From: a phage
Sequence record: PZ583738.1
Length of the DNA stretch: 64,000 nt
Reading direction: 5' to 3' (one strand)
The stretch's first letter is position 1. Each line of letters begins with the position of its first letter. Both the position numbers and the translations under genes were made by a program. Positions 5,189-56,876 of this stretch are shown here, in pieces. The notes below the pieces were generated by a model. The model saw nothing but the letters and a program-made list of their open reading frames with translations, was not told the DNA's origin and searched no databases.

Positions 5189-5470
5189 ATGAACAAAGCA
5201 ACTTTCCTTCTGAACACCTTTAAAAATCTGGAAATTGAAGTTATTGCCTTGGTCAACAAATACCCAAATGGTGTTAATGGTAATGCTCTGAACAAACTAG
5301 TTAAAAAATATGAAAACTTAGCATATGACACTGATTTCTGGTGGAATGGTAATTATTCTACTCACACTAAAGATAAAAATGGTAACTGGTTGAAACTTCA
5401 AGAAAACAATGTTAACTTCAGAGACCTCATCAAGCGCCGGGTAGAAGTTCATTTAAATGGTATGGTATGA
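5189..5470 (+). CDS. hypothetical protein (early, between genes 23 and 24)
   Basis: 93 aa ORF preceded by GTTTAC -35 / CATAAT -10 early-type promoter and conserved leader cataatgattccatactgag, RBS GGAG. Confidence 0.55.
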   Translation: MNKATFLLNTFKNLEIEVIALVNKYPNGVNGNALNKLVKKYENLAYDTDFWWNGNYSTHTKDKNGNWLKLQENNVNFRDLIKRRVEVHLNGMV

Positions 5471-5477
5471 AAACAAG

Positions 5478-5505
5478 AAAGGGACCTCAAGGGTCCCTTT
5501 TTATT
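5478..5505. terminator. bidirectional terminator between ORF 5189-5470 and gene 23
   Basis: aagggacctcaagggtccctt hairpin with flanking A/T runs. Confidence 0.55.
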
Positions 5506-44219: not shown

Positions 44220-44293
44220 GGCCCTGTAGCTCAATTGGTTAGAGCATCCGGCTCATAACTGGCAGGTTTCCGGTTCAAGTCCGGATGGGGCCA
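44220..44293 (+). tRNA. tRNA with CAU anticodon (Met, or Ile if lysidine-modified)
   Basis: Hand-folded cloverleaf: acceptor ggccctg/tggggcc, D-arm gctc-aattggtta-gagc, anticodon loop cTCATAa, T-arm tccgg-TTCAAGT-ccgga, discriminator A. Confidence 0.8.
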
Positions 44294-44295
44294 CC

Positions 44296-44372
44296 CGGGG
44301 TGTAGCTCAATTGTATAGAGCAACGGTCTTCTAAACCGTAGGTTGTGGGTTAGAATCCCACCACCCCGACCA
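44296..44372 (+). tRNA. tRNA-Arg (anticodon UCU), CCA encoded
   Basis: Hand-folded cloverleaf: acceptor cggggtg/caccccg, D-arm gctc/gagc, anticodon stem acggt/accgt with loop cTTCTaa, T-arm gtggg-TTAGAAT-cccac, then ACCA. Confidence 0.85.
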
Positions 44373-54283: not shown

Positions 54284-54778
54284 ATGAATATATTCGAAAT
54301 GTTACGCATAGATGAAGGTTGTAAGTTGGATTTGTATAAAGATACTGAAGGCTATTGGACCATTGGTATCGGGCAACTGATAACTAAGAACCCATCAAAA
54401 GATGTTGCTCGTGCTGAGCTCGACAAGCTCATGGGTCGCGTCTGCAATGGTCGCATAACCCAACACGAAGCTGAAACATTGTTTAATCGTTCGGTCGAAA
54501 AAGCTAAAGCTGGAATCTTGAGACATCCTGTCTTAAAACCTGTTTATGATGTACTGGATGAAGTTCGTCGCTGTGCACTCATTAATATGGTATTCCAGAT
54601 GGGTGTTGCTGGGGTAGCTGGTTTTCCTAAGGGTATGCGACTTCTGAAGGCTAAATCATGGGAAGCTGCTGCTAAGGAACTAGCTGACTCAAGATGGTAT
54701 AAAGTCCAGACTCCGAATAGGGCAAAACGAGTTATCGAAACTTTCCGTACTGGAACTTTTGACGCATACAAAAGGTAA
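54284..54778 (+). CDS. e: endolysin (T4 lysozyme family)
   Basis: 164 aa; [12 protein letters not shown]...[13 protein letters not shown]...[12 protein letters not shown]...TPNRAKRVI matches recalled T4 lysozyme including catalytic E11/D20 context. Confidence 0.95.
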
Positions 54779-54781
54779 AAT

Positions 54782-55051
54782 ATGAAAACGTATCAAGAAT
54801 TTTTGGCTGAATCTGTATTAAATGAATCAGATGAAAGCCGCATGGCATTTTTAGCTAAGAAAGAAGGCTTTGAGTTTACTTCTATTAAAAAAGTTAATGG
54901 AACTTCATTTAAAGTTGGTGATTGGACCTTTGGTAACAAAGGAAGTGGCCAGTGGCAAATTGTAGATAAATCTGGTAAAGAAGTGGATTATTTGTTTAAT
55001 CAGAAATTGGGTGATATCGCTAAACTTATGGGTCAATACTCTAAGAAATGA
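54782..55051 (+). CDS. internal protein with capsid-targeting leader (MKTYQEFLAES)
   Basis: 89 aa; CTS N-terminus; position between e and denV like T4 ipIII/ipII. Confidence 0.7.
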   Translation: MKTYQEFLAESVLNESDESRMAFLAKKEGFEFTSIKKVNGTSFKVGDWTFGNKGSGQWQIVDKSGKEVDYLFNQKLGDIAKLMGQYSKK

Positions 55052-55106: not shown

Positions 55107-55523
55107 ATGACACGTATTAACTTAACCCTGGTATCTGAACTTGCTGACCAACACCTTATGGCTGAATATCGTGAGCTTCCTCGCGTGTTTGGTGCGGTTC
55201 GCAAACATGTACAAAATGGTAAAAAGGTTTCTGACTTTAAAATCCCATCATCTTTTCTTTTAGGGACTGGTCATGTCACCTTCTTTTATGATAAACTTTT
55301 GTTCCTTAAAAACCGCCATCAAGAACTTATTGCGGAATGTTTAAAGCGAGGGTTTAACATAAAAGATATTTCTACCCAAGATTTAAATGATATTCCTGAT
55401 GAATGGAAGAATGATTATCAACCATCAATCTGGTCAATTGAAATCAGTCAAGCCAGACTGAATGAGAAAATTTCTCAAAAGCCTACCTGGTACAAATACT
55501 ATGGGAAAGCAGTGTACGCTTAA
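55107..55523 (+). CDS. denV: endonuclease V (pyrimidine dimer DNA glycosylase)
   Basis: 138 aa; [34 protein letters not shown]... near-identical to recalled T4 EndoV. Confidence 0.95.
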
Positions 55524-55571: not shown

Positions 55572-55871
55572 ATGTTAACTTATAAAGAATTTATCACAGA
55601 AGCTAAAGCTCCTAAAGCATTTCAAATCGGAGTCCAAGGTAATTTAGACCAACAATATGTTGATGCTATTGTAGCAAGCCTCGGTAAACAGGGCGTGCAA
55701 GTGGATTCGGTTGATTTTACTAAAGGCAATACTTTTAATATTGTTACATCTAAAGGTTCTTTAGCTAAAGTTAAAAAGGCCTTTGGCGTAGCACAAGCAT
55801 ATGAAATTGACCATTCTGAATTAGAAAATAAAGGTCGCCAGAACACAATTAAAGGTTCTGGTTCTTTCTAA
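55572..55871 (+). CDS. internal-protein-like protein with CTS-like leader (MLTYKEFITEA)
   Basis: Start at internal ATG of track ORF; CTS-like N-terminus. Confidence 0.6.
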   Translation: MLTYKEFITEAKAPKAFQIGVQGNLDQQYVDAIVASLGKQGVQVDSVDFTKGNTFNIVTSKGSLAKVKKAFGVAQAYEIDHSELENKGRQNTIKGSGSF

Positions 55872-56034
55872 TAAAGGCAAGCCGACCCTCTCCTCATGAA
55901 CGTCGCGTCCTCTGAGTGATGGACCTTTCCCTACCTGTAATAAGGTCGAGCCCAAGTGCGGTAAAGGGTTTACATACGGATACATGGGCGAATTATGTGC
56001 CAAGGAATGGCCCCACCACTTAAAAGAGACAATT

Positions 56035-56580
56035 ATGAAAACGTTTTTAACCGGTAGTTATCTATCCCTGATGAATGCTTTTGCAAACCATTCTGATGCT
56101 AGAGTAGAACACATTTGTAATAGTGGGTTTTATGTACCCGATTCACAAACCTTGTTTAAAGAATGCTGCACCTTAAAACTTGATGGTGGGCGCCAATCTG
56201 GTAAAACTAAAGCAGTATCCATTTTTGCTACGGAATGGTTAGCTGATGGCGGCTCTATTGTTATTTTGTCTAATAACACGGCATATGCTAATGTTTCGGC
56301 TACTGCAATCCGAAAGGAATATTTTAATAACCATACAGAAAGTATTAAGCACCGTTTGTACACTGATTCTGTTCGTAGTTTTATTGGTAACACTGCATGC
56401 AAATTCCGTGGATTATCACTTTCACGGGTTCTGTATATAATTGATGAGCCTGTTAAAACACCTGATATGGATAAGATTTATGATGCCCACATAAAGGTTG
56501 TGCATTATTGCTGTCGTGCATCATGTGAAGAAACCAATCAAACCACACGTCCTCTGTTCTTTGTGATAGGAATGCAATGA
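56035..56580 (+). CDS. P-loop NTPase (Walker A GGRQSGKT, Walker B LYIIDE)
   Basis: Start at ATG MKTFLTGS; Walker motifs visible; Cys-rich C-terminus (HYCCRASCEE). Confidence 0.55.
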   Translation: MKTFLTGSYLSLMNAFANHSDARVEHICNSGFYVPDSQTLFKECCTLKLDGGRQSGKTKAVSIFATEWLADGGSIVILSNNTAYANVSATAIRKEYFNNHTESIKHRLYTDSVRSFIGNTACKFRGLSLSRVLYIIDEPVKTPDMDKIYDAHIKVVHYCCRASCEETNQTTRPLFFVIGMQ

Positions 56581-56876
56581 TGACCCATGAAGAGCTTTTT
56601 GACCAAATCTATTTTATTCCAAAGGTTAGGTCAGAAGATTTCGTAAAGAATTTTGAAATCTTTAATAAAGCAAATTTCTTTGAGTATGTGTTTTTGTCTG
56701 GGCCTTTTATTGGGTCCAGATTTCGTTGCACTGCTCCGAGTATTCGCTTGATGAAGTTGGTTCCTTACTTTACTCTGGAATTTATTTCTGGACCGTGTAA
56801 GGGTATTATCACTCGTAGCCTCCTGACCTATGACCAGGATGTGCGATTAATTAGTGACTGGAAAAAATATGTCTAA
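56577..56876 (+). CDS. hypothetical protein
   Basis: 99 aa, ATGA-coupled. Confidence 0.45.
   Translation: MMTHEELFDQIYFIPKVRSEDFVKNFEIFNKANFFEYVFLSGPFIGSRFRCTAPSIRLMKLVPYFTLEFISGPCKGIITRSLLTYDQDVRLISDWKKYV

Follow-up and report, generated by a model that had tools for sequence, protein, structure and literature searches.

A Conserved Structured RNA Element Upstream of vs.8 in T4-Like Phages and Its Occurrence in Unrelated Phages of Enterobacterales

Gene Map of the Locus

The window analyzed here is the whole stretch of 64,000 nucleotides of phage DNA (PZ583738.1). It belongs to a T4-like phage that is closest to the JS98/IME08 group (Dhakavirus). The genes and features around the region of interest are as follows.

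54284-54778, + strand: e, lysozyme
54782-55051, + strand: internal protein with the N-terminus MKTYQEFLAE (phrog_8765)
55107-55523, + strand: denV
55572-55871, + strand: ip7-like internal head protein with the N-terminus MLTYKEFITE (phrog_2667 'internal head protein', E = 1.5e-41)
55872-56034, + strand: non-coding gap of 163 bp
56035-56580, + strand: vs.8 homologue (phrog_1488)
56577-56876, + strand: vs.7
44220-44372, same strand as the RNA element described below and 11.5 kb upstream of it: tRNA-Met(CAU) and tRNA-Arg(UCU), the sole tRNA genes in the window

The ip7-like gene ends at the stop codon TAA (55869-55871), directly followed by a second TAA, and in the relatives JS98 and VR7 its counterpart carries the annotation ip7 or internal head protein. 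The N-termini MKTYQEFLAE and MLTYKEFITE look like capsid-targeting sequences. denV is flanked on both sides by internal-head-protein (IP) genes. Because the number and kind of IP genes differ among relatives, the locus can be described as hyperplastic.

The ORF at 56035-56580 (+) encodes 181 aa and had been predicted to be a P-loop NTPase with Walker A and Walker B motifs. Both motifs are present (GGRQSGKT, residues 51-58; LYIIDE, residues 133-138). The ORF matched phrog_1488, a PHROG family with no assigned function, with E = 1.2e-70, residues 3-181 corresponding to positions 2-177 of the 177 in the profile. On this profile evidence, it is a full-length member of the T4 Vs.8 family. Because the profile covers residues 3-181, translation truly starts at the ATG of 56035 and not at the one further upstream, at 55984; a Shine-Dalgarno-like AAGAGA lies upstream of vs.8 at 56024-56029. 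G51, G52, R53, Q54, S55, G56, K57 and E138 were invariant in 16 homologues, among which D137 and the C-terminal cysteines vary.

All Pfam AAA and terminase models scored below their cut-offs on the ORF (Terminase_6N, 21.5 bits versus 22), and a sequence search for a relative of Vs.8 with a solved structure found none. The AF2 model of Vs.8 (pLDDT 79) consists of one RecA/ASCE-like domain, which Foldseek matched to the RecA-like domains of helicases, KaiC and RecD with probability up to 1.0 and TM of about 0.4-0.5. Vs.8 has the Walker A motif, the catalytic Glu and the predicted RecA/ASCE-like domain in common with RecA-like P-loop NTPases, but it has no second helicase domain. Motifs and predicted fold thus agree with the predicted NTPase. 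From sequence and model, the homologue would be assigned as a single-domain P-loop NTPase and nothing more specific.

Composition and Promoters of the Gap

The original prediction described the gap as unusually GC-rich. Its GC content is 0.497, compared with a window mean of 0.403 (z = 1.95), which places it in the top 3.2% of 163-nt windows. For the inner 146 nt, the value rises to 0.534 (top 0.6%), similar to the 0.549 of the tRNA pair at 44.2 kb. The enrichment is therefore visible, but it is moderate, with 29 places in the 64 kb as GC-rich as the gap.

We scanned the gap for the T4 late promoter TATAAATA and for the MotA box, and neither was found. A lone weak sigma-70-like or T4-early-like site, TTTACA-16-AATTAT, at 55969-55996 overlaps the RNA's 3' tail. 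Conservation of this site is limited to the Dhakavirus/Gaprivervirus group, and such sites occur at chance rate in the region. These results bear out the earlier statement that the gap has no clean early or late promoter.

Fold of the RNA Element

The gap contains a structured RNA element of roughly 107 nt that spans 55873-55979 (+); a conserved tail continues to about 56013. Its parts, all on the + strand, are listed below.

55873-55928, +: P1, long irregular hairpin
55873-55877 (AAAGG) with 55924-55928 (CCUUU), +: P1a
55886-55887 and 55889-55890 with 55918-55919 and 55921-55922, +: P1b
55893-55896 (CUCA) with 55913-55916 (UGAG), +: P1c
55898-55899 with 55911-55912, +: P1d
55882-55884, +: 5' strand of the pseudoknot (CCG), in the 5' internal loop of P1
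55929-55969, +: three-way-junction core (P2, P3, P4)
55929-55932 with 55965 and 55967-55969, +: P2
55933-55946, +: P3, ACCU[GUAAUA]AGGU
55947-55949, +: J3/4, CGA (consensus CNA)
55950-55959, +: P4, GC[CCAAGU]GC
55960-55964, +: J4/2, GGUAA
55966, +: invariant bulged G
55977-55979, +: 3' strand of the pseudoknot (CGG), in the 3' tail, seven nt past P2
55980-56013, +: 3' extension, T4-like phages only
55999-56011, +: hairpin GCC[AAGGAAU]GGC in the 3' extension

The near-invariant core of the three-way junction reads CCUGUAAUAAGGUCGAGC…GCGGUAA, and the near-invariant unpaired nucleotides are GUAANA in the P3 loop, CNA, GGUAA and the bulged G; because the distant copies were gathered with search patterns, part of the constancy seen in the P3 stem and the junctions is imposed by those patterns.

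In the 3' extension, the sequence ...AUGUGCCANGGAAUGGCCC is kept from Dhakavirus through T4 to Klebsiella phages. The stem at 55999-56011 is identical in 15 sequences, and phage PM2 has GGCA[UGGA]UGCC instead. Because the stem never varies in the 15 sequences, covariation is uninformative about it either way. We also observed that AUGGG/AUGGA is single-stranded at 55993-55997, before this hairpin, so that two GGA motifs stand about 12 nt apart. This arrangement at 55993-56011 is reminiscent of CsrA binding sites.

One 177.6-kb T4-like contig carries a tandem pair of elements (L028 5091-5254, - strand), which scored 64.5 and 52.5 bits with the covariance model R1 described below. The second copy has a shortened P1, with GCCU/AGGC as P3 and GUC/GAC as P4.

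Compensatory Changes Support the Fold

Double changes in the paired columns were counted and compared with shuffled controls and with slid registers. Among 34 sequences (alignment A2), 94.3% of cells were paired and 72 cells held double changes, compared with 20.4 ± 3.5 after shuffling and at most 25 in slid registers. The 48 core sequences (A3) gave 96.0% paired cells and 74 double-change cells, compared with 21.2 ± 3.3 and at most 13, respectively. When the pseudoknot was included (A5), 96.4% of cells were paired, and there were 31 double-change cells versus 8.7 ± 2.0. The observed value was reached by 0/500 shuffles in each of A2, A3 and A5. By its compensatory changes above both controls, the element is a conserved structured RNA, and the earlier suggestion that the gap might hold a structured or small RNA is supported by this covarying fold.

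The changes are distributed over the helices as follows. All five closing pairs of P1a show two-sided changes across families (AAAGG/CCUUU, AAAGC/GCUUU, GGGAA/UUCCC, GGGAG/CUCCC, GGGG/CCCC), and in P1b the pair at columns 14/50 covaries (CG 8, AU 7). All four pairs of P2 covary (AU/UA/CG/UG; CG/UA/GC/AU; CG/GC/AU). Covariation in P3 is confined to the closing pair (AU to GC). The second pair of P4 is CG, UA or GC; the stem occurs as GC/GC, GU/AC or GG/CC and also in 3-bp versions (GUC/GAC, GCC/GGC, GCG/CGC). The cores of P3 and P4 are helices without covariation.

The helix 55882-55884/55977-55979 surfaced unprompted when RNAalifold was applied to 15 long-P1 sequences. Because it crosses P1 and P2, it forms a pseudoknot. 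It is 100% paired in the 15 sequences (CCG/CGG, CAC/GUG, CGC/GCG, CCA/UGG), and two of the three pairs show 5 and 7 double changes, respectively. The covarying inner pair of P1 emerged from the same run. Beyond the T4-like phages, an analogous pairing was seen by eye, most clearly in loci L077 and L087 (GGGUA/UACCC versus GGGAG/CUCCC at homologous positions). A cross-family test of the best helix in each sequence against shuffles was not significant, and so the pairing outside the T4-like phages is taken as suggestive only.

The folding energy of the gap as a single sequence was no better than that of shuffled sequences (z = +0.22 on the + strand, -0.79 on the - strand); single-sequence folding is uninformative for a pseudoknotted RNA. 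Wobble pairs give weak evidence for the strand (12 G.U versus 4 A.C cells). The + strand was assigned mainly because the element is co-oriented with genes and tRNAs and with downstream terminators.

A covariance model of the core (R1) had a lone match in the window at 55922-55974 (72.2 bits, E = 2.8e-20). Applied to the fetched loci, R1 recovered 92/92 genuine copies at 42-74 bits and 0/9 chance pattern matches. Among the copies recovered are the tandem pair in L028 and the PM2 copy, which had been left out of model building.

The Conserved Region Is Not Coding

The gap had been called non-coding, and a check for a missed ORF gave none that is conserved and fills it: neither the + strand ORF at 55916-56023 nor the - strand ORF at 55821-56003 is kept across genera. 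Frame inconsistency and 1-nt indels rule out the former (35 aa) as coding content and the latter (60 aa) as a gene. The 60-aa ORF is limited to one subgroup and is probably an artefact of the conserved RNA sequence. In some relatives, such as Klebsiella phage Shark, this ORF over the element (L007 572-730) is annotated as a hypothetical protein.

In T4, the conserved stretch lies inside the annotated vs.8 CDS, which encodes 219 aa in NC_000866 and starts 26 nt past denV; the T4 counterpart of 55873-55979 is at about 64,800-64,912 of NC_000866. The coordinates of vs.8 as annotated in two of our loci are as follows.

L218 (NC_000866), 1754-2413: vs.8 as annotated
L004, 1987-2637: vs.8 as annotated

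The N-terminal extension of T4 Vs.8, roughly 38 aa, corresponds to one reading frame of the RNA element. T4 and the window use different frames over the conserved DNA, the length of the core varies by 1 nt among phages, and the family profile starts at the Met of 56035. These points speak against a coding element, and the T4-type extension was rejected as a protein on the same grounds of frame and indels. In the T4 reference, the annotated start of vs.8 is probably over-extended, and several 'hypothetical protein' calls over the element region are probably wrong. As a consequence for annotation, both would probably need correction.

One could still argue that the conservation is not that of an RNA, the region being either a translated N-terminal extension of Vs.8 or a DNA site (one that binds a protein, or one that anchors recombination in the hyperplastic IP locus). 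NC_000866 does annotate vs.8 with the extension, the core is open in frame +1, and the element borders highly variable internal-protein genes. However, the frame differs or is broken in other genera, the core carries 1-nt indels, and the Vs.8 family profile begins at the downstream Met. Compensatory changes in six helices, including the pseudoknot, are not expected of a site in duplex DNA, and the element is found in phages that have neither vs.8 nor IP genes. The coding and the DNA-site readings are each unlikely, and we regard a non-RNA origin of the conservation as very improbable overall.

Distribution among Phages

The 175 nt around the gap have related DNA in 988 phage records. The match is full-length in Dhakavirus, Gaprivervirus, Klebsiella and Enterobacter T4-like phages, PM2 and STML-198; in Tequatrovirus, including T4, the alignable part is only the inner region of ~55930-56013. 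The element occupies the same locus in Dhakavirus, Gaprivervirus, Tequatrovirus, Karamvirus, Gelderlandvirus, Mosugukvirus, Kanagawavirus and other T4-like genera, which speaks against the earlier idea of a recently acquired segment.

A 39-nt core is shared with the Vequintavirus phage CarlMeissner, where it lies in a non-coding gap upstream of a tRNA cluster. Distant copies were gathered by exact-pattern scans of IMG/VR and metagenomes. These scans found the core in many T4-like genera, in rV5-like contigs of 137-148 kb and in contigs of 84-86 kb. The core also occurs in 46-48-kb Klebsiella Webervirus-like siphophages, on one contig next to a Kagunavirus-like endolysin gene, in a 360-kb contig and in several environmental phage contigs. 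A loose scan with a 3'-half pattern gave nearly all chance or coding matches, plus one genuine new variant (L105). The fold, comprising P1, the three-way junction and the pseudoknot, is thus conserved in several unrelated virulent phage families of Enterobacterales.

No match to the element was found in 185,579 bacterial and archaeal species, represented by one genome each, or in 5,426 E. coli genomes. Among the genomes searched, the element is restricted to phages. A host-derived or prophage origin was ruled out, there being no match in the E. coli or the one-per-GTDB-species genomes.

Genomic Context of the Element

In T4-like phages, the element starts 0-12 nt past the stop codon of the preceding gene and is followed by the conserved 3' extension and then by vs.8. 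Its distance from the tRNA genes is 6-12 kb in these phages. An IP gene takes the place of vs.8 behind the element in Klebsiella phages, and in Vequintavirus, Webervirus-like and other phages the element is present without any vs.8. The element is independent of vs.8, and the proposal that it is a leader of the NTPase is not supported. The constant association with one gene or gene set that would mark a cis-regulatory leader is not seen for this element. An all-against-all BLASTP of the flanking ORFs found no protein cluster common to T4-like contexts and the others, so that a protein partner shared across phage families was rejected.

Outside the T4-like phages, ARAGORN placed the element within or beside a tRNA cluster on the same strand in most lineages (tRNA-adjacent loci: L005, L016, L030, L034, L037, L053, L071, L072, L081, L083, L084, L091, L093). 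Where a non-T4-like locus has a tRNA gene, the element nearly always lies on the same strand and no more than about 600 nt away. The side of the tRNA array on which it is found varies: it may be 5', internal, or 10-50 nt 3' of a tRNA. In Vequintavirus, a promoter or tRNAs come next after the element. The order in L093 is tRNA-Ser, 45 nt, element, and a terminator-like hairpin with a U-run that was read by eye from the sequence and was not called by the terminator scan. L069 has no tRNA; its element is flanked by an endolysin gene on one side and by a 13-bp intrinsic terminator on the other.

Several side observations were made at these loci. In Webervirus-like phages (L016 ~5300-5480, - strand; also L053, L030 and L034), an outer helix GUUGUGAC…GUCACAAC encloses the element, and it is compensatory in L053 (GUUGUGAA/UUCACAAC). 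Its 5' strand is part of a repeated motif, AGUGCYNUUUCCGUUGUGRYGAA, that recurs nearby. A tRNA-like gene of about 98 nt is present in the tRNA clusters of rV5-like phages (L005 3078-3176; L032, L048, L064, L092); ARAGORN gives it a four-base anticodon (atcc), and in CarlMeissner it is annotated as tRNA-Lys. A motif CCCUUAGAGGGCUUGAUAGUGC stands 5' of the element in rV5-like loci (L005 1925-1965; L037 60-100 and 175-215), and in L037-type loci it is also found 3' of the element.

This context bears on three rival explanations. The first is a cis-acting transcript element, that is, a processing site, a barrier to RNase E or a 3' exonuclease, or an antitermination signal of the HK022 put type, which would protect long untranslated tRNA arrays or early operons. 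The T4-like copies are always embedded in a polycistronic unit, 0-12 nt past a stop codon, wedged between that codon and a ribosome-binding site and provided with a lineage-specific 3' extension; in other phages, the copies are upstream of, inside or directly downstream of tRNA arrays. Compact folds of a junction plus a pseudoknot are typically nuclease-resistant, and this compactness would suit a nuclease barrier. However, L069 has no tRNA and its element ends at its own terminator, and a simple barrier would not require that unrelated phages agree in single nucleotides to this degree. Because the element is found 5', internal and 3' of tRNAs, a single directional cis function such as antitermination is also disfavored. 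We consider a cis-acting element rather unlikely overall, though its setting in T4-like phages leaves some probability for a cis role there.

The second explanation is a riboswitch-like aptamer that would bind a ligand and control vs.8, the IP gene or a downstream terminator. A junction and pseudoknot with invariant unpaired nucleotides would fit such a role, as would the conserved 3' hairpin and ribosome-binding site within about 55 nt in T4-like phages and the terminator (L069) or terminator-like hairpin (L093) downstream. However, the downstream genes are unrelated among phages, or are replaced by a promoter or tRNAs, no conserved alternative pairing to the ribosome-binding site or terminator was found, and Rfam gave no riboswitch match even at E ≤ 10. 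An aptamer of this kind appears improbable.

The third explanation, which seems less probable still, is a new self-cleaving ribozyme; in analogy to the HDV-like theta ribozymes next to phage tRNAs, it would trim the transcripts of tRNA clusters. The element is 10-50 nt from tRNA 3' ends in L071, L072 and L093, and its invariant core nucleotides and pseudoknot resemble those of small ribozymes. However, no Rfam ribozyme family matches, J4/2 (GGUAA) lacks the catalytic C of HDV-like ribozymes, and the strand order is unlike that known for hammerhead, pistol and twister.

Proposed Role of the Element

The core is near-identical in lineages that have no neighbor genes in common, which suggests strong selection on an exact 3-D fold whose target is shared by the hosts. 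We lean towards the explanation that the element is a structured + strand phage RNA that is autonomous, stable and trans-acting on a host target. The RNA would share its transcript with early and middle genes (e, IP, denV, IP and vs.8), and it would be made, and probably processed, like the phage tRNAs that it usually neighbors. It would not regulate vs.8. Action in trans would proceed through the 3-D fold and not through antisense pairing, because the only long invariant stretches are structural, whereas in the variable parts pairing is maintained.

The likeliest target would be a conserved enterobacterial host component, either the machinery of translation or tRNAs, or a defence factor directed against that machinery. 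More tentatively, and with a good deal of doubt, the element might be the founding member of a new class of trans-acting RNAs whose pseudoknotted junction would specifically bind a conserved enterobacterial factor and neutralize or re-program it, for example as a decoy or sponge against an immune effector directed at tRNA or translation; alternatively, it might found a new ribozyme or aptamer class. The proposed class of trans-acting RNAs would span T4, rV5-like and T1-like phages.

T4 is among the best-studied phages, yet the element has gone unrecognized inside the annotated 5' end of vs.8. About a thousand sequenced T4 relatives carry this overlooked element.

Comparison with Known RNAs

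A covariance search of the gap had been proposed as a check, and no Rfam 15 family matched. Over the whole window, Rfam 15 at the gathering threshold gave only the two tRNAs at 44220-44372. At E ≤ 10, the region 55780-56120 gave two chance matches, neither of them inside 55873-56013, and ten loci from other phage families gave only tRNAs. By these searches, the element is best read as a new RNA class, set apart from the Rfam 15 families. A tRNA or tmRNA was ruled out, as neither ARAGORN nor RF00005 called anything at 55872-56034, and the helix order, P1 then P2[P3, P4], is not that of a cloverleaf.

No occurrence of the core sequence was found in the literature searched, and nothing relevant to the element was found in the literature on phage non-coding RNAs, vs.8 and T4 small RNAs. 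A catalogue of over 10,000 viral candidate structured RNAs has been published (PMC10690425), and it may list the element anonymously. Several other likenesses were not adopted, since the fit was too poor: the GUAAUA hexaloop of 23S, the 3' end of 16S, the tRNA-Tyr anticodon loop, HDV-like or hammerhead topology, T-loops and CsrA sites.

Species 1 and 2 of T4 (rnaC, rnaD) are reportedly small stable RNAs that are transcribed with the phage tRNAs. The element differs from them in that its T4 copy is outside the tRNA cluster, between denV and vs.8, and is not annotated as an RNA. Like the element, riboswitches built from a junction and a pseudoknot, and the theta ribozymes, consist of a compact multi-helix junction that a pseudoknot holds together, and they contain invariant unpaired nucleotides. 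Theta ribozymes also lie beside phage tRNA genes, as the element does outside the T4-like phages. However, no covariance model of such aptamers or ribozymes matches the element, and its gene context does not suit a cis regulator.

In genomic niche, though in nothing else, the element comes closest to the ROOL and GOLLD RNAs of phages and prophages, which are 'often near tRNA islands' (PMC12286853). This is also the niche of the element outside the T4-like phages. ROOL and GOLLD are likewise structured, pseudoknotted non-coding RNAs of phages and prophages whose function is unknown. However, they measure 500-800+ nt, assemble into multimeric cages and are found chiefly in Firmicutes and other lineages, whereas the element has about 110-150 nt, occurs in virulent phages of Enterobacterales, is unrelated to them in sequence and architecture and does not match their Rfam models. 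RNAs of the ROOL/GOLLD type from tRNA islands are functionally unexplained, and a small example in T4 and E. coli would offer a genetically tractable case.
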